The translations under genes and the position numbers were made by a program. Below the pieces are notes generated by a model. The model was not told the origin of the DNA, searched no databases, and saw only the letters and a list, made by a program, of their open reading frames with translations. Of a stretch of 64,000 nucleotides of DNA, positions 3,124 through 61,031 are shown one piece after another (position 1 is the first letter of the stretch; each line of letters begins with the position of its first letter). This DNA is from Alphaproteobacteria bacterium (GTDB lineage Bacteria; Pseudomonadota; Alphaproteobacteria; RF32; CAG-239). Location: contig JAZSBR010000010.1 of NCBI GenBank assembly GCA_045602545.1, positions 46,352-110,351 of the forward strand. Direction: 5' to 3'.

Positions 3124-3166
3124 GCTTTTCCCTCCCCGCATCTTTGCGATGCTTTTATTTTTTTCC

Positions 3167-3485
3167 TTTACAATCACAAAATTTTTTGCTAGCATAAATG
3201 CAGAATGGTTTTTTACCATTTCAAGAACCTTCGGGTTCGGGGCTGTCGTAGGCTCTTTGTTCTGAGTGATACACTATAAATGGTATCACTTTGTGATGCT
3301 GTTTTTTTTGTATCAAAATCCCCGCATTGGTTGGGGAGATTATAGCGTATGTTCAGGCTTGTTTTTCAAGCTAAAGGCTATAATAGTCATTGCTCAGAAC
3401 ATGATTTACGAACTCCCCGCCCACTGATTGAAAAACAGAGGGCATTTAAATTTTAAAAACAACCTTTTTAATGGGAGATAATAAA
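3167..3485 (+). promoter_or_regulatory. Promoter plus long structured 5' leader of LRR paralog 1
   Basis: TTTACA (3167-3172), 17 nt, extended -10 TGCTAGCAT (3187-3195). The first hairpin AATGGT/ACCATT is shared with the leaders at 44450 and 10961(-). Several further hairpins follow over ~270 nt before the SD GGGAGA. Confidence 0.55.
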
Positions 3486-4703
3486 ATGATAAATTTGAAA
3501 AATAAATCCGCTGTCATCTTGAACCCCGAACGAAGTGAGTGGGTGTCAAGATCTCATGTTACAGGTGTAGAGATTGTTGTTAATGACGGAGTTAAAACGA
3601 AACGTTACTCTGCAAAAAGAGATCTTTACGCCCGCTCGCCTAACGGCTCGAGGCTCAAGATGACTGCTCCGGCGTCGTGCCGTAAGGCACATAAACGCCG
3701 CTTCATATTTAATCCATGGATTCTTCGTTTCGTTTGTACTCCACTCAGAATGACGATTCCGACCCTTGCCCTCACTTTCATCCTTATCGCCACCACCGAA
3801 TCGTATGCGGAAGTTGTTAAAACATGGTCTTGCGGTGCGGTTTGCACAGCAAGTTTGGATTCTGATGGACTATTAACAATTTCGGGAACTGGAGCAATGA
3901 ATAATTATAGTACCACATATACAGATAATACTCGAACAAATGCACCATGGGGTTCTGATGAATACAGACTAGCCATTAAATCAATTAAGATAGATGATGG
4001 TATAACTTCAATTGGACATAGCGCTTTTAAGGGATTAAAAGAAGTAAAAACAGCTCAAATTAGTGACACTGTTAAAAATATAGGAGCTTATTCTTTTGCT
4101 TATAGCGGTTTAAATTCAGTTAATGTTCCTGATTCTGTACAAAGTGTTGGTATTTCATCCTTCAGCAGTTTTACCCCAAGTTGGTCTTTGGCATTAAAAG
4201 AAATGGTGATACCTGATAGCATAACATCAGCGCAAGTTGATCAGATTTTTATAAATTCAAGAGAGGGTAATAATAGTAGCTTGCCAACCATACGCTGTTT
4301 AGGTGATAAAGAAAAATGTCAAAACGCTTTAAATAAATATTTACCAACATCTGTTGGAGGAAGTTGCTCATCAAAATGTTTAAGTGCAAAGGTTAATATT
4401 TTACCCGTTATAGATGAAAAGCAATGCTTAGGTAAATACATATGGAAAAATCAAACATGCACAGCTATGTCAGAAAAAGAATGCAATAATGTTTCAAAAT
4501 ATTATTATGATGGAAAGGAATGCAAGAACAGACCTTCAAACAATATAATAGAATGCAATTATGAATATAGCGGTTATATTAAAGTCGGCAATTATTGCGC
4601 TTCACCTGAAGAAACTTATGCTAAAAAGCATTACACCCCGGCGGAAGCGAACAAGTGGCTAAATGATGATGATAACTATGTTATTTTAACATTTAAAAAG
4701 TAA
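3486..4703 (+). CDS. Secreted BspA-type leucine-rich-repeat protein, paralog 1 of 4; the true N-terminus is uncertain
   Basis: LRR_5-like repeats (ITSIGHSAFKGLKEV.., VKNIGAYSFAYSGL.., VQSVGISSF). The C-terminal part is Cys-rich and the protein ends YTPAEANKWLNDDDNYVILTFKK. A signal-peptide-like MTIPTLALTFILIATTESYA starts only at 3750. Alternative starts are 3471 and 3750. Confidence 0.7.
   Translation: MINLKNKSAVILNPERSEWVSRSHVTGVEIVVNDGVKTKRYSAKRDLYARSPNGSRLKMTAPASCRKAHKRRFIFNPWILRFVCTPLRMTIPTLALTFILIATTESYAEVVKTWSCGAVCTASLDSDGLLTISGTGAMNNYSTTYTDNTRTNAPWGSDEYRLAIKSIKIDDGITSIGHSAFKGLKEVKTAQISDTVKNIGAYSFAYSGLNSVNVPDSVQSVGISSFSSFTPSWSLALKEMVIPDSITSAQVDQIFINSREGNNSSLPTIRCLGDKEKCQNALNKYLPTSVGGSCSSKCLSAKVNILPVIDEKQCLGKYIWKNQTCTAMSEKECNNVSKYYYDGKECKNRPSNNIIECNYEYSGYIKVGNYCASPEETYAKKHYTPAEANKWLNDDDNYVILTFKK
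3511..3760 (+). repeat. Block of GC-rich nested-palindrome repeat elements lying in frame inside the 5' end of the LRR paralog 1 ORF
   Basis: GTCATCTTGAACC..GGTGTCAAGATC, and CGGCGTCGTGCCGTAAGGCACATAAACGCCGCTTC (homologous to CGGCGCAGTGACGCAAGTCACATAACGCGCCGCTTC in the 19319 repeat). The block ends in GAATGACGATTCC. Confidence 0.65.
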
Positions 4704-7471: not shown

Positions 7472-7573
7472 GAACATTTCTTATCCCAACGATTTTTTTT
7501 ATTTTAGGTCTTGACAAAAATAGCTGATATTCTTATAGTACCGGCAAATACTAATTATTAAATCTTTAAGCTT

Positions 7574-9614: not shown

Positions 9615-10724
9615 TTATTTTTTAAAGGTTATCACAACTTCGTTTTTGTCGTCGTTACGCAAAACTTGAGCCGCCTCGGCAGGAGTATAGCGAATGCGGT
9701 TGCACCATCCGCCCATGTCTTTGCAAACATCGGCACAACATGTGCGCTTACTTAAATCCGGCTCACGAACGCATTTTGCTCCATCCCAGTAGTAATTTGT
9801 TGAAGCACAAGTTTTATAATCGGCATAAAACAATTGACCTGTTGCATCATATGTTTGTCCTTTTACAGCGGAATATTCAGTCAGTTTTTCGTAAATATTC
9901 GAACAAGATGCTTTATCTCCGCGACATATTATTTGTACATTATTTACTAGAATATAATCACCCAATGATTGATAAGCTATATCATTCAATGTGTCTGGTA
10001 TAATTACCTGTACAAGACTATTGGAATCTTGCAAAGCACATTCTCCAATGCTTGTTACCGCATCACCGAAATCAACATATCTTAATTTTTTTTCATTATC
10101 AAATGCTCCGGCTCCTACACGTTCAACCGAATCTCCGATGGTTATATTTGTGACTTTTTTCATATTTCTGAATGCCTGTGATCCGATATTTTCAACGCCG
10201 GAAACATAAATTGATGTGATGTCTGCCGGCCACTGAGTATTTTGTCCTGTCTTACCCCAAGCATAATCATCCATTGTACCGACTGTTCCATCCTCTCCGC
10301 CGGTTATAGTTAGCTTTTGATTTTCCACCGACCAGCAACAATTTGTTCCGCATGATTGTTGTCCGGTTTCGCAATTTATATCGTTTATATCTGCCCATAA
10401 TTCAGCGGTTGTGGCGAGGGTTAAAATAAGGGCAAAAATTAGTACTTTAGCGAAACCAAAACTAAAATGGTCATACTTGAGAATTGCGGAGCAATTAACC
10501 GAGTATCTCGGCTGATTCTTTTTTGATTCGGCTGAGATTATCGGTTCGCTTGACGCGCCCGATAATGACAATCTTTGTTTTTTGCTTTTGCCGCTCAAGG
10601 TCAGGAATGACAGCGCTTTGTTTGTCTCGGTGTTGAAGATTACCACGTTAGAGCCTACAGCTCTTCCTAGTAATGGCATCGCCTTATTTATTTTTTCACT
10701 CTTAATTTCAAACATTTTTAACAT
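9615..10724 (-). CDS. Secreted BspA-type leucine-rich-repeat protein, paralog 2 of 4, with a repeat-derived N-terminal extension
   Basis: LRR_5-like repeats (VENIGSQAFRNMKKV.., VERVGAGAFDNEKKL.., VTSIGECALQDSNSL..). The protein ends RYTPAEAAQVLRNDDKNEVVITFKK. The start context AAAGAAAGGATGTTAAAAATG is homologous to that of paralog 4. Confidence 0.7.
   Translation of the reverse strand: MLKMFEIKSEKINKAMPLLGRAVGSNVVIFNTETNKALSFLTLSGKSKKQRLSLSGASSEPIISAESKKNQPRYSVNCSAILKYDHFSFGFAKVLIFALILTLATTAELWADINDINCETGQQSCGTNCCWSVENQKLTITGGEDGTVGTMDDYAWGKTGQNTQWPADITSIYVSGVENIGSQAFRNMKKVTNITIGDSVERVGAGAFDNEKKLRYVDFGDAVTSIGECALQDSNSLVQVIIPDTLNDIAYQSLGDYILVNNVQIICRGDKASCSNIYEKLTEYSAVKGQTYDATGQLFYADYKTCASTNYYWDGAKCVREPDLSKRTCCADVCKDMGGWCNRIRYTPAEAAQVLRNDDKNEVVITFKK
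10499..10680 (-). repeat. GC-rich nested-palindrome elements lying in frame in the 5' end of the paralog 2 ORF
   Basis: The coding strand GCCATTACTAGGAAGAGCTGTAGGCTCTAACGTGGTAATCTTC matches the reverse complement of 20961-21003 (GTCATCACGAGGAAGAGCCGCAGGCTCTGACGTGGTGATCTCC) at 35 of 43 positions. Confidence 0.65.
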
Positions 10725-10994
10725 CCTTTCTTTTTATAAATTGAACCAAAAGAAAAACCCGCTACTTTCGTTAAAAAAAGCGGGCGGATGTTCACAAACC
10801 GTATCTCATCAAACGGCTCGGCGCTTTCGTGCTAAAGCCTTATTATGACACCGACATCCGCTCCCAAAAAACGAACGAAGTCGGTATACACCAACAAATC
10901 GCAATCGCGACCAATGAGATAAAGGGTTGTGACGCCCTAAAACGGCTATAAGCCATTCTGCTTTTACACTAGCAAAAAATTTTGTGTTTGTAAA
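10725..10994 (-). promoter_or_regulatory. Promoter plus conserved structured leader of LRR paralog 2 (homolog of 44417-44698)
   Basis: Read on the minus strand: TTTACA (10994-10989), 17 nt, TGCTAGTGT (-10 at 10971-10966). A ~240-nt leader can be aligned with the paralog 4 leader and shows compensatory changes. Confidence 0.65.
10753..10784 (-). terminator. Intrinsic terminator at the 3' end of the paralog 2 leader
   Basis: Minus strand: CCCGCTTTTTT taacg AAAGTAGCGGG followed by TTTTT, about 30 nt before the SD. Confidence 0.6.
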
Positions 10995-20081: not shown

Positions 20082-20795
20082 ATGATTGAAATGCTCGGTG
20101 TTTTGGCCATTATCGGTGTTCTCTCTGTTGGTGGTATTGCCGGCTATTCAAAGGCAATGATGAAGTTCAAAACGAACAAAACCATCGACCAAATCGCTAT
20201 GACTGTTACAAACATTAGAACATTGTATGCTCAGCAGAAGTCATACAATGGTCTGAAGACGAGTAATGCGTATTCCATGGGTGTAACAGATGATGCTATG
20301 GGTAAAAGCGGCACATTAACCAATGCTTTTGGTGGCAATGTCTATATTGGTAGCGCAAAAAGCGGTGCTGTCGGCGAAGGTGATGATTATGGTGCATTCT
20401 TGGTAACATTCACCGGACTTCCTCGTGAAGCTTGTGTTGCTATTGCCACAAATGACTGGGGTTCAGGTTATTCTTCCGGTTTGCTTGGTATAGGTACAGG
20501 TGTTGAAGCCGCAGCTGCTCCAGCTGCTCCTGTTACAGGTTGGAATTTGTTGGATTATGTTATCAGCGACGCTTATGCTGCTGTTACTCAAGATACCGAC
20601 TCTAATGCGCAAAACATTCCTTGCGATGTAGATGGTAATTCAACTAATGGCGGTCAAAAAGGTTCTCTAATAAATGAGAATGCCGTAGCCTGTGCTATTG
20701 GCAATACTTCAGCTGCACTTTCTGTGGCTAAAGCAGCAACCGGTTGTGCTTGCGGTTCAGCAAACAAATGCGTTGTATCACTTAAATATTACTGA
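20082..20795 (+). CDS. Type-IV-pilin-like protein, paralog 1. Only the in-frame body is given here. The leader appears to be encoded upstream in another frame.
   Basis: (KGRS)MIEMLGVLAIIGVLSVGGIAGYSKAM is a class-III signal/N-terminal helix with Glu at +5. The protein ends CACGSANKCVVSLKYY, like the paralogs at 59683 and 60321. Confidence 0.75.
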   Translation: MIEMLGVLAIIGVLSVGGIAGYSKAMMKFKTNKTIDQIAMTVTNIRTLYAQQKSYNGLKTSNAYSMGVTDDAMGKSGTLTNAFGGNVYIGSAKSGAVGEGDDYGAFLVTFTGLPREACVAIATNDWGSGYSSGLLGIGTGVEAAAAPAAPVTGWNLLDYVISDAYAAVTQDTDSNAQNIPCDVDGNSTNGGQKGSLINENAVACAIGNTSAALSVAKAATGCACGSANKCVVSLKYY

Positions 20796-39584: not shown

Positions 39585-39822
39585 TTGACTTTTGAAAATC
39601 TTTTTGCTAATATAAATCCAGAGCATAAAAGGCTCGGAGGTATCCTATCCTCAGATATAACATAAACTTCTGACTATATGGTCGGAAGGTGGTAGAATAA
39701 AGATAGCAGTATCTGAATATATCGCACTATTTGTTATATCATAGTTAGGATCTTCCGGCCTCCGTTTCGGGGGTTTTTCTTTTTGTGCCGGATGGAATAA
39801 TTTTTTAGAAAGGAAAATTAAA
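39585..39822 (+). promoter_or_regulatory. Promoter plus long leader of LRR paralog 3
   Basis: TTGACT (39585-39590), 17 nt, TGCTAATAT (-10 at 39608-39613). The ~200-nt leader has several hairpins and a terminator. Confidence 0.55.
39759..39778 (+). terminator. Intrinsic terminator inside the paralog 3 leader
   Basis: CCTCCG ttt CGGGGG followed by TTTTT, ~45 nt before ATG 39823. Confidence 0.55.
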
Positions 39823-40536
39823 ATGAATAAGTTTGTTTTAATAGGTGCATTTATATTATATTTTGCGACTCCAAAAGTTTCTTCTGCCGCGTGTGATTAT
39901 GGTGATTTTTCCTGTAATGGAATGACCGGTGATAGTGCCTATTGTTGCTATACCGATCTTGACGGAGACGGAAAAAATATTTCAATATATAAAGATCCGG
40001 CTGCCGGAGATAATGAAGCTAGTGTGGGATATGGAGCCTTTTGGGAAAATGAAACTATAGAAAACGTTTATATAGATGAAGGAGTTACTTCAATCAAACC
40101 TAATGCTTTTGATTCGGCAACAAATTTAATCAGTGTAGAGATGCCATACATTCAAACATTGGAAAGTGAAGCTTTTGCAGAAGCAACTAATTTGACGGAT
40201 ATATACATATCAGATTTACAGCACATAGGCGAATATGCTTTAGCAGGTACTTCAATTGATTATATAGAATGCCATAATACTATGACATTTTGTGAAACAT
40301 TAAAAAATACATTTCCAGTGAATCTGCAAGATAATTTTTATATAAACGAAATATATCAAGAGCCAGAATCTCCGCAAATAACAAAAACTGATTGCTACAA
40401 TCAAGGTAAAGTCCTTTGGGATAACACTTGTGTTGATGAATACCCGTTCGCTAAGAAACGTTGGACGCCGGCGGAGGCAAATGAGTGGCTTCACGATGGA
40501 AATGATAATTTTGTAGTAATAACTTTCAAAAAATAA
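39823..40536 (+). CDS. Secreted BspA-type leucine-rich-repeat protein, paralog 3 of 4
   Basis: Signal peptide MNKFVLIGAFILYFATPKVSSA. LRR_5-like repeats (VTSIKPNAFDSATNL.., IQTLESEAFAEATNL.., LQHIGEYALAG). The protein ends KKRWTPAEANEWLHDGNDNFVVITFKK. Confidence 0.8.
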   Translation: MNKFVLIGAFILYFATPKVSSAACDYGDFSCNGMTGDSAYCCYTDLDGDGKNISIYKDPAAGDNEASVGYGAFWENETIENVYIDEGVTSIKPNAFDSATNLISVEMPYIQTLESEAFAEATNLTDIYISDLQHIGEYALAGTSIDYIECHNTMTFCETLKNTFPVNLQDNFYINEIYQEPESPQITKTDCYNQGKVLWDNTCVDEYPFAKKRWTPAEANEWLHDGNDNFVVITFKK

Positions 40537-44416: not shown

Positions 44417-44698
44417 TTGACATTAGAGGTTTTTTATGATAGCCTTAATTCAGAATGGTGAGTTACCATTTTAGGGCGTGAGAACCCTTTATTCCACTAG
44501 TCGCAAAAGCATAGCGACTTAAAAGTTGTATGCCGATAGTTCGTTCATCTAATGGAGCGGATGTCGGTGCAATAAGGCTCCTTAAAAAGCGCGAAAACGC
44601 CGAGCCGATCAGTGGAATACGGTTTCTCAACATCCGCCCGCCTTTTCTTAGGATAAGAATGACGGGTTTTTCTTTAGCTTAATTTAATAAAAGAAAGG
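44417..44698 (+). promoter_or_regulatory. Promoter plus conserved structured leader of LRR paralog 4 (homolog of 10725-10994 on the minus strand)
   Basis: TTGACA (44417-44422), 17 nt, TGATAGCCT (-10 at 44440-44445). The leader starts near CAGAATGG (44451) and has about six helices that are conserved, with compensatory changes, relative to the paralog 2 leader. Confidence 0.65.
44637..44671 (+). terminator. Intrinsic terminator at the 3' end of the paralog 4 leader
   Basis: CCCGCCTTTTCTT aggat AAGAATGACGGG (imperfect stem) followed by TTTTT, ~28 nt before ATG 44699. Confidence 0.55.
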
Positions 44699-45625
44699 AT
44701 GTATAAAATGAGTGCATATTTTAGTAAAAATTTGATTTTAAGTTTAGGTGTGGCAACGATGTTATCATTAGCAATAGGCGAATCGCGGGCGGAAACAACC
44801 TGCACTTGGGAAGGAACAAAGCTGATTATCGGTGGAAGTGGTGAGTTTTCCGGCTGCGATTCGGTATACGATGATGACGATAATGAAATTGATTGGGGCG
44901 AACAGCAGGTAAAAATAACCGAAATTGAGTTTGGAGATGGTATTACGGCTCTAGGAAATTATGTTTTTGATAATGTCCCTAATTTAACAACACTAAACAC
45001 CAATAATATAACTACAATAGGAGAGGAATGTTTTGATAATTTGCAAAGCCTCTTGAAAGTTACTATGCCTAAAGTTGAGCGTATAGAAAATTGGGCTTTT
45101 GAAAATTCTAATAACCTTATAAGTATAGAACTTCCATCTTCACTTGTTTATGTTGATTCTGATGCTTTCAGAACATATAATGACATAGAATTTATTATTC
45201 CTGATAATCTAAAATTTGTCTCTGATGAATACGAGTGGTTATGGAATACGGATGCCTTAAATGATACAGATGAAGGATTAGTGATATTTAAATGTAAAGG
45301 CAACAGCGAAAAATGCAAAGAAAACATACAAAAATATATGGTTGATGCATCTAACGTTAGCAGTAAACAGGTTATTTTTGATGCCGGAGATCATAAAGAA
45401 TGTCTTAAATCTGCAGATGATGATTTAGAATATTATCATACTGGAACAGAATGTGCCGAGTTGCCAGAAAGCGGAAATATAACTTGTGACAGCGGTTATG
45501 CCGATTATAACGGAAATTGTTATGCTCAATTACCTTTTTCAAAAAAGCGTTGGACGCCGGCAGAGGCAAATGAGTGGCTTCATGACGGAAATGATAACTT
45601 TGTGGTGATTACGTTTAAGAAGTGA
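44699..45625 (+). CDS. Secreted BspA-type leucine-rich-repeat protein, paralog 4 of 4
   Basis: Signal peptide ..LILSLGVATMLSLAIGESRA. LRR_5-like repeats (ITALGNYVFDNVPNL.., ITTIGEECFDNLQSL.., VERIENWAFENSNNL..). The protein ends KKRWTPAEANEWLHDGNDNFVVITFKK. Confidence 0.8.
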   Translation: MYKMSAYFSKNLILSLGVATMLSLAIGESRAETTCTWEGTKLIIGGSGEFSGCDSVYDDDDNEIDWGEQQVKITEIEFGDGITALGNYVFDNVPNLTTLNTNNITTIGEECFDNLQSLLKVTMPKVERIENWAFENSNNLISIELPSSLVYVDSDAFRTYNDIEFIIPDNLKFVSDEYEWLWNTDALNDTDEGLVIFKCKGNSEKCKENIQKYMVDASNVSSKQVIFDAGDHKECLKSADDDLEYYHTGTECAELPESGNITCDSGYADYNGNCYAQLPFSKKRWTPAEANEWLHDGNDNFVVITFKK

Positions 45626-47391: not shown

Positions 47392-48678
47392 AATCTTAAC
47401 ACTGTTGCGTGACGGTTGAGGCATAACCTTAAACCCGTTCTTATAGTTCTCAATCTTATTCAAAAGCTGATAATCAGGGTATCCGTCTTGTGGTAAATGA
47501 GCCTTTTTCTGAATTTTTTTAATACCTTCTCGGGTTTTAGGCCCCAACTTTCCGTCTTCCTTCAACTTTGGCGAAAAAAGCTTGTTGTGGAACTTTTGAA
47601 TTTTCAAAATTTCATCAGAATTCATCACATATTGTGACGATGCCTCCATCGGCAAAACTTTTTTATTTTCATGCTTGATATAATCAGCCAAAATTGCCAC
47701 CGCCAAAGCATAATTATCAGAGCGATTCCAAATCATGATGCGCTTGAAATTACCGAAAACAATATAAGCAGGACCTTTTCTGCCGTCAGGCAAAATTACC
47801 GAACCTTTCATCTCGTCATCAAAATTCAAATCACTTCCGTCATACGACTTAACCCCGAGTTTTTTCCATTCGGCAACGGATTTTGTGGTCTTTCTTCCGG
47901 AAATTTCAAAATCAAAATCCCATGGCAGGGAAACGCGCTTTCCCCACGGCTCGTCTTTTTTCCAGCCTAAGCTTGAAAGATAATTGGCTGCTGAAGCAAT
48001 TGCATCATCAAAATTATCCCAAATATCCGCAATACCGTCTCCGCTGCCATCAACGGCATAGTGATTATAAGTTGACGGCATAAACTGAAAATGACCCATT
48101 GCGCCTGCCCAAGAACCGCGAATTTTATCGCCGTCAAGTTTTGTTTTATCCATTATTTTAAGCACATTATAAAGCTCGTTTTTGAAAAAATCGGAGCGAC
48201 GGTTTTTATAACTCAAATTGGTAAGACTGTCAATTAAGTGATACTGCCCCTTATTTTTGCCGAAGTTTGTTTCAATCGCCCAAAATGAGATCAAATAATA
48301 AAGCGGAACGCCGTATTTTTCTTCTGTTTTAGCATATTTTTTCTTCAAAATTTTATACTGCTTGCGCCCCTCTTTAACGCGAGCCTCATTAACAAGACGA
48401 TTAACATAATTGCAGGTTGTCAAAACAAATTCGGTTTGCTTTTTATCTTGCTGAACAACCGCCGAAACCTTGTGATAATAGTTTTTACCTTTATATGCGG
48501 CATCAATGGTTTTTTGCGAGATTCCCTTTGAAATCATCTCTCGCTTCAAATTTTCAAGCCACTTTGTCCACTGTGCCGGCGGTTCATCGGATGTGCTTGC
48601 AAAAGCATTAACACTCATCATAACCGCAAAACAAAAACAGAGCAAAAATTTTATTTTTTTAAGAGCATTCACCATCAT
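47371..48678 (-). CDS. Lytic murein transglycosylase (MltB/SLT_2 type) with a C-terminal peptidoglycan-binding domain
   Basis: GSWAGAMGHFQFMPSTY and DAIASAANYL, then a C-terminal EDGKLGPKTREGIKKIQKKAHLPQDGY. The start is taken at MMVNALKKIKFLLCF (signal peptide), directly after the rlmN stop. Confidence 0.8.
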   Translation of the reverse strand: MMVNALKKIKFLLCFCFAVMMSVNAFASTSDEPPAQWTKWLENLKREMISKGISQKTIDAAYKGKNYYHKVSAVVQQDKKQTEFVLTTCNYVNRLVNEARVKEGRKQYKILKKKYAKTEEKYGVPLYYLISFWAIETNFGKNKGQYHLIDSLTNLSYKNRRSDFFKNELYNVLKIMDKTKLDGDKIRGSWAGAMGHFQFMPSTYNHYAVDGSGDGIADIWDNFDDAIASAANYLSSLGWKKDEPWGKRVSLPWDFDFEISGRKTTKSVAEWKKLGVKSYDGSDLNFDDEMKGSVILPDGRKGPAYIVFGNFKRIMIWNRSDNYALAVAILADYIKHENKKVLPMEASSQYVMNSDEILKIQKFHNKLFSPKLKEDGKLGPKTREGIKKIQKKAHLPQDGYPDYQLLNKIENYKNGFKVMPQPSRNSVKISRKNAE

Positions 48679-59682: not shown

Positions 59683-60309
59683 ATGTCAAATAATAATTTC
59701 GGACGTTCAATGATTGAAATGATAGGCGTTTTGGTGATTATCGGCGCACTTTCGGCCGGCGGTATTGCCGGATATACAAAGGCTCTGCACCAAAACAAAG
59801 TGAATAAATCAATTGAGCAAATCGGTGTAATCAGCGGTCATCTTTCCACAATCGGCGCCAACGGCGGCCTTTATACCGGTATGAGCAACAAATCTGCCAT
59901 AAAATTAAAGGCAGTTCTGCCGGAAATGAATCCTTCGGGAACAAGTTTGAAAAATCCGTTCGGAGGTGATGTAGAAATAAGTTCGGCAAAGCTTTTAAGT
60001 GACGGCGGTGATGATCAGGCATATTCCATAAAATACAGCGGGCTTGATAAACAGGCTTGCTTGGCGTTGGCAACAAATGACTGGGGATCAGCAAAAAATT
60101 CATCATTCATCGGAATTGTTGCAGGCCCTTCCGCTTCATTAAACACTGACAGCCTTTATCTTAAATGCCCGGGACAAAAGGCTGCTCTTACTTCAGTTGT
60201 GGGTTGCAATAACGGGACAACACTCGGAATACCTATACCGGTTAGCGAGGCAACAACCATTTGTTCAACCTGCGGAAACAGCTGTGCCGTTGCCCTTAAA
60301 TATTATTGA
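59683..60309 (+). CDS. Type-IV-pilin-like protein, paralog 2 (short leader)
   Basis: The SD AAGGAG is present. MSNNNFG|RSMIEMIGVLVIIGALSAGGIAGYTKAL has Gly at -1 and Glu at +5. The C-terminus is CSTCGNSCAVALKYY. The promoter TTGACG-N17-TAAGAA lies upstream. Confidence 0.8.
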   Translation: MSNNNFGRSMIEMIGVLVIIGALSAGGIAGYTKALHQNKVNKSIEQIGVISGHLSTIGANGGLYTGMSNKSAIKLKAVLPEMNPSGTSLKNPFGGDVEISSAKLLSDGGDDQAYSIKYSGLDKQACLALATNDWGSAKNSSFIGIVAGPSASLNTDSLYLKCPGQKAALTSVVGCNNGTTLGIPIPVSEATTICSTCGNSCAVALKYY

Positions 60310-60320
60310 GGAGATTTGAT

Positions 60321-61031
60321 ATGATAGATAATATAAGCAGATTCGCACAGAGCGGAAGAAGTATGCGAACGAAGTGTGATGCAAATGCGCCGACTTTTTT
60401 GAGTGCCGTGTACATAAATAGTACACAAACGAAAAAAAGACAAGCAGGTGCACCGCAATACGGTCGCAGTATGATTGAGATGCTGGGTGTGTTGGCCATC
60501 ATAGGAGTGCTTAGCGTTGGCGGAATCGCCGGCTATACAAAAGCAATGATGAAGTCAAAAGTCAACTCAACCGTTGAAACAATGCTTACAATCGCTTCCA
60601 ATGTACGTACATTGACATTGCGCACCAAAAACTATGATAATCTGGCAAAAGTTGCCATTAAAATGAAAGCTATTCCTGAAAAGGCTCTTAACGGCAGTTC
60701 GCTCGGGGCAAATACCTTTGGCGGCAGCGTAGGACTCGGAGAATTTTATAATAAATCGTTTTATGTTGCCATGAACGGCTTGCCGAGAGAAGCTTGCGTT
60801 GAGATTGCTTCAAAAGATTTCGGCAGTGCCTTGGTTTATGCCGGCGACGGTGATTTTGGCGCCAATAAATTATCATCGCTCGAAAATACAAACTTAAAAT
60901 TTGCCAATCCGGCTTGTTCTTCGGCTGCCCCTTATTATTGCCTGAAAAAACCAATGAGTCCGGCAACCGCGGCGCAAGCTTGCAGTTGTGCGGTGTCAAG
61001 CGGTTGCAGTGTAGCCCTCATAATGTTTTAA
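60321..61031 (+). CDS. Type-IV-pilin-like protein, paralog 3 (48-residue leader)
   Basis: The SD GAGGAG lies 7 nt before ATG 60321. ..QYG|RSMIEMLGVLAIIGVLSVGGIAGYTKAM, with a C-terminal CSCAVSSGCSVALIMF. Confidence 0.75.
   Translation: MIDNISRFAQSGRSMRTKCDANAPTFLSAVYINSTQTKKRQAGAPQYGRSMIEMLGVLAIIGVLSVGGIAGYTKAMMKSKVNSTVETMLTIASNVRTLTLRTKNYDNLAKVAIKMKAIPEKALNGSSLGANTFGGSVGLGEFYNKSFYVAMNGLPREACVEIASKDFGSALVYAGDGDFGANKLSSLENTNLKFANPACSSAAPYYCLKKPMSPATAAQACSCAVSSGCSVALIMF

Follow-up and report, generated by a model that had tools for sequence, protein, structure and literature searches.

The question raised by the locus described here is what a structured leader RNA of about 225 nucleotides (nt) does in front of the gene for a secreted leucine-rich repeat (LRR) protein, and to which kind of RNA it belongs. 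The locus lies in a stretch of 64,000 nt from an Alphaproteobacteria bacterium (GTDB lineage RF32, CAG-239; assembly GCA_045602545.1, contig JAZSBR010000010.1, positions 46,352 to 110,351 of the forward strand), which was analysed as a whole and is called the window below; all unprefixed coordinates refer to it. At 44417-44698 of the forward strand, an earlier note had marked a conserved motif, called copy A here, as an unassigned structured leader with a terminator and an antiterminator. Copy A proves to be a member of a family of structured RNAs with strong covariation, whose three subtypes keep a strand complementary to two partners and whose topology recalls that of the c4 RNA of phage P1. 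The element may be a cis-acting conditional transcription attenuator derived from a distant relative of the P1 'a1b1 + c4' leader, a reading to which we give about an even chance.

A family of leader RNAs

The RNA of copy A extends over 44451-44675 on the (+) strand and that of a second copy, copy B, over 10961-10745 on the (-) strand. Nucleotides 44417-44698 align by blastn with the reverse complement of about 10713-10979 at 72.5% identity over 284 nt (E = 1.5e-34), in keeping with the homology that the earlier note had placed near 10725-10961, and by sequence the two copies are paralogs. When their folding was compared with that of dinucleotide shuffles, z was -4.6 and -5.3 for the two copies, and 0/200 shuffles were equally stable. 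Only these two copies had been noticed before, but the window contains four related leader elements, the additional ones at 3238-3426 and 39637-39764, and each of the four is located 5' of a gene of the LRR_5 (BspA-type) family.

Homologs were collected from metagenome contigs with one exact pattern made of three blocks common to copies A and B, which fixes 25 positions in the resulting type-1 set. The scan returned at least 120 stretches, from which about 33 were discarded as chance matches to coding DNA of high GC content. Among the matches listed, 87 are true homologs (68 distinct), and their homology spans the whole of the approximately 230 nt, beyond the pattern itself. Altogether the family comprises at least about 76 distinct homologs, all from metagenome contigs. 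Four of these contigs (L121, L092, L057 and L052) encode housekeeping proteins that are 77-89% identical to proteins of the window, which indicates that these contigs come from related Alphaproteobacteria.

A covariance model, R1, was built on 59 distinct sequences. On the collected loci it finds 92 forward-strand copies at 85-168 bits, while the reverse strand gives at most 25 bits, and it scores copy B (10745-10994 (-), comprising promoter, 5' hairpin, clamp, junction and terminator, 5' of the LRR_5 paralog 9615-10724) at 120.1 bits. The copies found include second copies on one contig and tandem pairs about 270 nt apart; in L007, L024, L033 and L119 the pairs consist of complete elements, each with its own promoter and terminator. 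A plasmid collection contained no match, and a phage collection yielded a single one, which is partial and lies in an unannotated contig of human-faecal origin labelled 'Bacteriophage sp.'. A scan of genome contigs with the alignment of the LRR proteins reached four loci, none of which bears the leader RNA; the contig of one LRR relative, P0002, begins 60 nt 5' of the gene and is thus without a leader. A viral scan with the pattern AATAAGCCGAGCCG..CGGTTT yielded one match, which is a chance occurrence in a tRNA cluster: at 7495-7540 of an IMG/VR contig (L126), AAGCCGAGCCG...CGGTTT falls on the antisense strand of tRNA genes, and the stretch is not a family member.

Architecture and covariation

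The structure was obtained from a MAFFT alignment and RNAalifold, together with an independent count of pairs over 59 distinct type-1 sequences. From 5' to 3', the leader of about 230 nt consists of a hairpin (P0), a clamp of three helices (S1, Pa and Pb) that closes a four-way junction, and an intrinsic terminator. Enclosed by the clamp are two hairpins, H1 and H2, and a conserved central part, AAUAAGGC..GCCGAGCCG. Over S1, Pa, Pb, H1 and H2, standard pairs are found in 93.4% of cells, against 30-47% when the partners are slid, and two-sided changes are found in 251 cells, against 33-81 with slid partners; the observed pairing values were attained by 0/500 shuffles. The expanded alignment that the earlier note had looked to as a check thus shows strong covariation. 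Because G-U pairs are numerous and R1 is strongly strand-specific, the structure is formed by the RNA of the given strand.

The P0 hairpin, AGAAUGGUG/UACCAUUUU, lies at 44452-44472 (+) in the minimum-energy fold of copy A. A hairpin of variable sequence occupies this position in essentially all members, and copy B carries a compensatory change there (AAUGGC..GCCGUU). In the clamp, the 5' strand of S1, GGGC at 44474-44477 (+), pairs with GCCC at 44636-44639, a pairing that blocks the terminator; the corresponding RNAalifold columns (3-6 with 208-211) are paired in 100% of cells. In an alternative register, which is compatible with the terminator and is the one used in the minimum-energy fold, GGG pairs with UCC at 44633-44635.

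Pa is formed by UGAGAACC (44479-44486 (+)) and GGUUUCUCA (44621-44629 (+)), and it includes three strongly covarying pairs (CG 30, AU 23, GC 6; GC 32, AU 24; AU 26, GC 18, CG 9, UA 4). Pb is formed by AUUCCACUA (44491-44499 (+)) and CAGUGGAAU (44610-44618 (+)), so that the clamp helices of copy A read UGAGAACC:GGUUUCUCA for Pa, AUUCCACU:AGUGGAAU for Pb and GGGC:GCCC for S1. Pb varies in both sequence and length (7-15 base pairs (bp)), and all seven of its aligned pairs show two-sided changes. An alignment-free measure agrees: the mean duplex energy of the Pb strands is -18.1 kcal/mol with their own partner and -7.6 kcal/mol with foreign ones, and the own partner is the best match in 51/60 sequences.

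H1, AGUCGC-AAAAGCAUA-GCGACU at 44499-44519 (+), is drawn from covariation, with 96.6% of cells paired and two-sided changes in 4/6 pairs. Its loop nucleotides GCAUA (44509-44513) probably form a pseudoknot with UAUGC (44529-44533), 5' of H2, and compensatory variants of it were read by eye in L087 (ACAUA with UAUGU) and L109 (GCGCAU with AUGUGC). H2 pairs GCCGAU..UUCGUUC with GAGCGGA..GUCGGU. Its 5' arm, region 1 (GCCGAUAGUUCGUUC, 44532-44546 (+)), sequesters region 2, the middle strand GGAGCGGAUGUCGGUG (44554-44569 (+)), a block identical in copies A and B. Of the two helices of H2, helix 5 is paired in 96% of cells and helix 6 in 85%, and G-U pairs are frequent in them, as are changes on one side only; at the base of H2 an A-U versus G-C change was read from the alignment in copy B and L045. 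Covariation in the central part, AAUAAGGC ... GCCGAGCCG at 44570-44610 (+), is limited to CGGCN with NGCCG (UA 30, GC 6, CG 1) and CCGU with ACGG (GC 55, AU 3).

Four helices that the earlier note had drawn from the comparison of two copies, namely AATGGT/ACCATT (P0), ATTCCACT/AGTGGAAT (Pb), AGTCGC..GCGACT (H1) and GCCGAT/GTCGGT (the base of H2), hold throughout the 59 sequences. It had also listed shared blocks as unpaired, and this description needs correction for several of them, which are paired as GGGC:GCCC (S1), GAGAACC:GGUUUCUC (Pa, a helix that had been missed) and UUCGUUC:GAGCGGA (upper H2).

Metagenome assemblies may hold chimeras between near-identical leader copies. In L053, L108, L016, L007:784-935 and L024:154-305, the 5' arm of Pb is that of one copy and the 3' arm that of another; L108, for example, combines a Pb 5' arm of the L028 type with a Pb 3' arm and gene of the L118 type. 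Such mixed arms could be either assembly chimeras of near-identical repeats or genuine recombination between copies.

Promoter, terminator and gene start

The sigma70-like promoter of copy A is composed of a -35 element TTGACA (44417-44422), a 17-nt spacer and a -10 element TAGCCT (44440-44445), all on the (+) strand, and transcription would start at about 44451-44453. The corresponding elements of copy B are TTTACA (10994-10989) and TAGTGT (10971-10966) on the (-) strand. Although simple consensus scans of copy A called neither a promoter nor a terminator, the TTGACA-N17 promoter proposed before finds its counterpart, TTGACA/TTTACA-N16-18-TAnnnT ending 6-9 nt 5' of P0, at the same place in 68/73 distinct members, including both elements of tandem pairs.

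The terminator was missed by the scan because its stem is long and interrupted. In copy A it reads CCCGCC..GACGGG followed by UUUUUCUUU (44637-44675 (+)), with its hairpin at 44637-44671 as previously placed. A terminator hairpin and U-tract, starting at the same CCC that ends ..CAUCCGCCC, are present in 76/76 distinct members, and the stem covaries (CCCGCC:GGCGGG, CCCACC:GGUGGG, CCUACC:GGUAGG). Its first three C's are at the same time the 3' end of the clamp, where they are used both by S1 and by the pairing of region 2 with region 3 that is described below.

The first open reading frame (ORF) mostly begins 45-60 nt past CAUCCGC, that is 15-35 nt past the U-tract, behind a Shine-Dalgarno (SD) sequence, which leaves no space for another promoter between leader and gene. 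In copy A the gene for the LRR_5 (BspA-type) secreted protein (44695-45625 (+) with its SD; Pfam LRR_5, E = 1.9e-18) had been given ATG 44699 as its start. The start is more likely ATG 44708, because the SD sequence AAGGA occupies 44695-44699, and the database protein P0001 (305 amino acids) agrees with it. Copies A and B have the conserved arrangement AAAGGAUGU-N5-AUG in common.

A middle strand with two partners

Region 2 (GGAGCGGAUGUCGG) is complementary not only to region 1, with which it forms H2, but also to region 3, ACAUCCGCCC at 44630-44639 (+), with which it would form a closing stem like that of c4. Region 3 can in turn pair with region 4, in the terminator, through its last CCC. 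The competing pairing that the earlier note had recognised between GCGGAUGU and ACAUCCGC does overlap the 5' arm of the terminator, and the same logic recurs in two diverged subtypes. The duplex energies are -17 to -21 kcal/mol for regions 2 and 3 and -17 to -20 kcal/mol for regions 1 and 2 within type 1; across subtypes the latter falls to -3 to -10 kcal/mol. By constrained folding, the minimum-energy structure is the closed four-way junction together with the terminator, and forcing S1 into the GGGC:GCCC register, in which the base of the terminator is lost, costs 0.9-4.8 kcal/mol. When the 3' part is folded alone, it assumes the c4-like shape, with regions 2 and 3 paired and the terminator truncated.

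The two additional leaders of the window represent the diverged subtypes, of which type 2 is known from three sequences and type 3 from two. The type 2 leader (39637-39795 (+)) lies 5' of the LRR_5 paralog 39823-40536; R1 matches it at 39637-39764 with 17.8-18.2 bits (E = 0.007-0.009). The type 3 leader (3160-3440 (+)) lies 5' of the paralog 3471-4703 and is matched by R1 at 3238-3426 with 24.1 bits (E = 2.6e-4), which was detected only with filters off. Relatives of both, L131:589-743 and L130:659-794 for type 2 and L128:4291-4480 for type 3, were reached through LRR homologs.

Type 2 retains Pa and Pb, with the strands CUUCUGACU/GGUCGGAAG/CUUCCGGCC and a terminator CCUCCGUUUCGGGGG followed by U's. 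Type 3 retains the S1/Pa/Pb clamp, with the strands CCCC/GGGGAG/CUCCCCGCCC and a different and longer interior, and its promoter and P0 (3160-3221) are common to copies A and B by blastn, the match to copy B being almost exact. The energies of the 1:2 and 2:3 duplexes are specific to each subtype, and within type 2 a change from C-G to U-A is mirrored in both partners of the middle strand. Comparison of the sequences shows that all three diverged subtypes keep the double complementarity of the middle strand. The type 2 and type 3 leaders lend the idea of a switch its decisive support, because the logic of 1:2, 2:3 and 3:4 pairing is kept in them with sequences of their own.

Relation to c4, sRNA-Xcc1 and IsrK

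No family of Rfam 15 reaches its gathering threshold on the element, either in the window or in 15 loci, so the earlier label of an unassigned motif stands at that level. Below threshold, however, its 3' half resembles sRNA-Xcc1 and C4, isrK is also matched, and the clamp has the topology of the P1 leader. The sole Rfam match on the RNA of copy A at E up to 10 is sRNA-Xcc1 (44555-44647; 23.4 bits, gathering 53), and riboswitch families are not matched at E up to 10 in copy A or up to 1 in 13 loci. The 3' domain of 12 other members matches sRNA-Xcc1 over its full length at 27-39 bits, again below 53, and one member (L096) matches C4 at 30 bits, below its gathering score of 45. The 5' domain of L087 gives 33 bits with isrK (gathering 50) and 20.6 bits with c4-a1b1 (gathering 46.7), all sub-threshold, and in the latter weak match P0 is the counterpart of hairpin 1 of the Rfam family. 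Both the sRNA-Xcc1 and the C4 models align region 2 as the 5' strand of their closing stem. In the fold of that kind, hairpin 1 would come from the central part, as would the 5' side of hairpin 2, whose loop would be the Pb 3' strand; the Pa 3' strand would stay single-stranded between this second hairpin and the closing stem. The c4-like closing stem and two hairpins fit 94.9% of cells; most of these columns are fixed by the search pattern, and only two pairs covary.

The P1 annotation (AF234172) lists, in this order, promoter P1c4, the site a1, which a small G/C hairpin carries in its loop, then b1, c4 RNA, a2, b2 and icd. In the c4 RNA itself, hairpin 2 has b' as its loop, and a' is the unpaired stretch just ahead of the closing stem's 3' strand. 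The leader places its elements likewise. A small hairpin, GGG-[Pa 5']-CCC, holds the a1 equivalent in its loop and the Pb 5' strand, equivalent to b1, follows directly; the Pb 3' strand, equivalent to b', sits between CCG and ACGG, and the Pa 3' strand, equivalent to a', directly precedes ACAUCC. In addition, GGG or GGA is found at the position expected for an RNase P site (44554-44556). When R1 was run on 2 kb of P1, on both strands and without filters, the best match was at 48249-48410 (11.5 bits, E = 0.009), and its alignment puts Pa on a1:a' and Pb on b1:b'. Homology to c4 is suggested by these sub-threshold Rfam matches and by the P1 alignment at 11.5 bits; the common topology could in principle also have arisen by convergence.

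With the immI c4 locus of P1 and P7 (RF01695, RF03163) the leader thus shares the order of promoter, 5' hairpin, a1 hairpin, b1 and two-hairpin domain, as well as the nesting of a1:a' outside b1:b', and, judging from the sequence, it would be co-transcribed with the gene that it precedes. P1 and P7 differ in their a and b sequences and keep the scaffold (PMC5320573); the leaders likewise vary in these sequences from copy to copy on a constant scaffold. Differences are equally clear. Pairing energies indicate no a2/b2 targets over the downstream ribosome-binding site (own versus foreign, -6.47 and -6.49 for b', -5.18 and -5.22 for a'), an exact a1-like 7-mer occurs downstream in only 1/71 members, and a second pair of a and b sites was not found elsewhere in the 64-kb window. 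Antisense action on a2/b2 over a ribosome-binding site, as in P1, was accordingly rejected for the leader. Unlike P1, the leader has an intrinsic terminator that overlaps the closing stem, while region 1 and H1 lock its c4-like domain into a four-way junction; and, unlike the P1 antirepressor operon, it is chromosomal, multi-copy, alphaproteobacterial and located before surface and methylase genes.

sRNA-Xcc1 (RF02221), an RNA of Xanthomonas integron cassettes and the best Rfam match to the 3' domain (model positions 1-87, sub-threshold), has in common with it a closing stem, an AAUA-rich hairpin and the arrangement GCCGU..ACGGUUUU..A.C. It is present in several, sometimes tandem, copies per genome and is also multi-copy in Xylella (PMC12189769), and the leader is likewise multi-copy and partly in tandem. 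sRNA-Xcc1 is only about 87 nt long, whereas the leader embeds the domain in about 225 nt with a 5' clamp, and sRNA-Xcc1 is described as a trans-acting small RNA and has not been reported as the leader of a protein gene.

IsrK (RF01394), from the Salmonella prophage Gifsy-1, is a short terminated RNA that interacts with a read-through mRNA made from the same promoter (PMC4825925), and by analogy its locus offers the nearest known parallel in function to a leader of this superfamily. It differs in that it controls translation of a downstream prophage ORF and has no c4-like 3' domain, and its trans action is known, while the leader is known from sequence alone. In P1 itself (L127), the Rfam isrK model matches the a1b1 region and the terminator-like hairpin that follows (48230-48311, 35 bits), which suggests that IsrK belongs to one kind of element with the a1b1 leader of P1, in spite of their separate Rfam families.

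The Group 1 C4-like small RNAs of Acinetobacter baumannii form a large chromosomal family with variable specificity loops and are apparently processed (PMC5320573). The leader resembles them in its many chromosomal c4-like copies, but they are gammaproteobacterial, reach the Rfam C4 model and have not been reported as clamp and terminator leaders before surface genes. The lists of c4 occurrence in PMC5320573 (citing Weinberg 2010) and PMC2864571 name beta- and gammaproteobacterial orders and phages, and not Alphaproteobacteria.

Proposed mechanism and alternative explanations

As in classical attenuators and the expression platforms of riboswitches, the leader has strands that pair as 1:2, 2:3 and 3:4, with a terminator 5' arm that is common to the antiterminator. 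A terminator and U-tract stand between promoter and gene, and an alternative pairing covers the 5' arm. Unlike classical attenuators, it has no leader peptide, T-box features, known aptamer or protein-binding motif. In the attenuation that we propose, the closed state, with regions 1 and 2 paired and the clamp formed, would let the terminator form, which would free a short transcript of about 225 nt and keep the gene off. Pairing of region 2 with region 3 (the c4-like fold), or S1 in its distal register, would remove the base of the terminator and allow read-through into the gene. Since the closed state is the thermodynamic default, read-through would need a trigger, that is a factor which frees region 2 or holds region 3; a protein, a trans RNA acting on the locus-specific Pa/Pb strands, a small ligand, RNase P processing or co-transcriptional folding kinetics might serve.

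Several points weigh against conditional attenuation. The start site, termination and read-through are all predicted ones. The closed fold with the terminator is more stable than the c4-like or antiterminator one by 14-17 kcal/mol, and this closed, terminator-bearing state therefore looks like an 'off' default; of the attenuator suggested earlier, the leader, the terminator and the competing pairing are retained, but the proposed antiterminator fold suffers from this difference. Masking of a1/b1 in silico leaves the fold unflipped; such masking was rejected as the trigger of a switch, since the minimum-energy fold retains H2 and the terminator. In type 1, regions 2 and 3 are fixed by the search pattern, and their pairing has almost no informative variation. 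In 12-15/59 type-1 sequences the 2:3 helix has mismatches at its two outer pairs, two natural G to A variants weaken these outer pairs and retain H2, and support for the 2:3 pairing comes from five diverged sequences and the Rfam models. No ORF stands behind the first element of the tandem pairs (L007, L024, L033 and L119), and promoter-bearing copies of this kind fit a transcript that has a function in itself. Finally, c4, IsrK and sRNA-Xcc1 are described as trans-acting RNAs and not as attenuators (PMC5320573, PMC4825925).

These ORF-less copies lead to a serious rival, compatible with attenuation although rather unlikely to be the primary function, in which the element is in the first place a small-RNA gene and read-through is secondary. 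It would encode a self-inhibited precursor of about 225 nt, whose a1/b1 sites and region 1 mask the c4-like domain; a cut by RNase P before GGGCGG/GGAGCGG would yield a c4-like antisense RNA of about 100 nt ending at the terminator, and this processed RNA, or the short leader, would act in trans through Pa/Pb, for example on its own locus. The element indeed has its own promoter and terminator, its isolated 3' part folds exactly like sRNA-Xcc1 and C4, and the Pb sequence is particular to each copy. There are precedents for both steps, as P1 c4 and the C4-like RNAs of A. baumannii are cut from longer transcripts at GG(W) (PMC5320573) and the short form of IsrK targets, in trans, the read-through transcript of the locus that encodes it (PMC4825925). 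Nevertheless, the equal own and foreign energies reported above point to no a2/b2-like target downstream, and the window offers no second pair of a and b sites. The full-length RNA hides a' and b' within a clamp of 17-24 bp and leaves the c4-like stem unformed, so that RNase P would lack its substrate. The constant place directly 5' of the SD and start, with no promoter space, also speaks for a functional link to the gene. A bolder combination, which we think improbable, makes the leader a self-addressed switch from phage immunity circuits, in which the short RNA acts in trans through Pa/Pb on nascent transcripts of the same locus.

Control by a small molecule is a less likely option, and we consider it improbable. 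The four-way junction would then be an aptamer whose ligand, for instance a second messenger, stabilises S1 or the 2:3 pairing and turns a surface regulon on. The size, high conservation and multi-helix junction of the element would suit this, as would the probable pseudoknot, the many invariant unpaired nucleotides, the tandem copies and a closing helix that overlaps the terminator as in typical 'on' riboswitches. Regulons of adhesin, pilin and envelope genes resemble those of cyclic-di-GMP riboswitches, and the gene set downstream of the leaders is similar to these. On the other hand, no riboswitch family of Rfam 15 is matched, even at E up to 10, and the downstream genes, which include DNA methyltransferases, have no common metabolic theme. 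Types 2 and 3 retain the clamp and the strand competition around a wholly replaced junction interior, which is unlike the evolution of an aptamer, and the antisense RNA to which the element is related needs no ligand. The lack of an aptamer match, the mixed gene set, the replaced interior and this kinship are our reasons for ranking a metabolite riboswitch low. Least probable by far is an explanation at the level of DNA, in which mobile 'promoter + gene' cassettes recombine or invert at the inverted repeats and the RNA structure is a by-product. Pa and Pb do constitute inverted repeats around about 130 bp, the units resemble single-gene cassettes between housekeeping genes, some metagenome copies mix 5' and 3' arms, and sRNA-Xcc1 occurs in integron cassettes according to the title of Chen et al. 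2011 (via PMC12189769). Yet the opposite strand would have A-C mismatches in place of the many G-U pairs and scores no more than 25 bits with R1, against 85-168 bits for the leader strand, and the repeats differ among copies, with no single recombinase site conserved. Promoter, terminator and SD have a fixed order and spacing, neither inversion nor change of length is seen among seven samples of one locus, and the mixed arms can be assembly chimeras of near-identical repeats.

Downstream genes and other features of the window

The window is an alphaproteobacterial segment with a G+C content of about 40%, and the Rfam search located in it a two-piece tmRNA of the alpha type at 2106-2446. All its leaders precede LRR genes, but in the wider family the element is not specific to LRR genes and many unrelated genes lie downstream. 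Among 55 downstream proteins, Pfam recognises LRR_5 (4), EcoRI_methylase adenine methylase (3) and OMP_b-brl beta-barrel (3), and further TRL, PEGA, Hexapep transferases, GT1 glycosyltransferase, N6_Mtase, a Sulfatase-type enzyme and an opacity-type porin; numerous lipoproteins and prepilin-like proteins are also found downstream of leaders. The set is one of cell-surface and DNA-methylase genes, not of a metabolic pathway. Slipped-strand phase variation was considered and rejected, the tract lengths being identical in seven samples of one locus.

The four LRR_5 paralogs of the window (3471-4703 (+), 9615-10724 (-), 39823-40536 (+) and 44699-45625 (+)) and 19 database relatives have an almost invariant C-terminal tail of 27 residues, KKRWTPAEANEWLHDGNDNFVVITFKK, outside which they are only 25-60% identical; the tail may be a sorting or anchoring signal. 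Some of the ORFs extend N-terminally before the signal peptide (3471-3750 and 10400-10724 in the window; P0005, P0010, P0011, P0015, P0023 and P0050), with the recurring blocks KNKSAVILNPE and SVSYETLVGGTTTTGR. These extensions may be conserved non-coding or repeat DNA called as ORF, or a real cytoplasmic extension. The window also encodes prepilin-like proteins at 20082-20795, 59683-60309 and 60306-61031 (+), with the N-terminal motif GRSMIEMLGVLAIIGVLS, whose relatives stand directly 3' of type-1 leaders on many other contigs. An R1 search, the sole check made there, found no leader upstream of these genes in the window.

Implications

The leaders constitute a new family of structured RNA from poorly studied, uncultured Alphaproteobacteria, with strong covariation, at least about 76 distinct members, three subtypes and no Rfam 15 model at threshold. 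If the kinship with c4, sRNA-Xcc1 and IsrK is real, this group of phage-derived RNAs extends to the Alphaproteobacteria and has there acquired a new job as a leader. To our knowledge, the role of the a1/b1 sites in P1 was never settled, and the family provides the first strong comparative evidence that a c4-type upstream a1/b1 pairs with a'/b' within the same molecule. If the leader is conditional, it would be a compact natural RNA device with a variable 'address' helix and would mean regulon-wide control of the cell surface in these bacteria. Should it moreover be self-addressed, feedback could give each locus heritable on and off states, and dozens of surface, pilin, envelope and DNA-methylase genes per genome would be switched independently, an RNA-based phase variation that needs neither DNA rearrangement nor repeat slippage.

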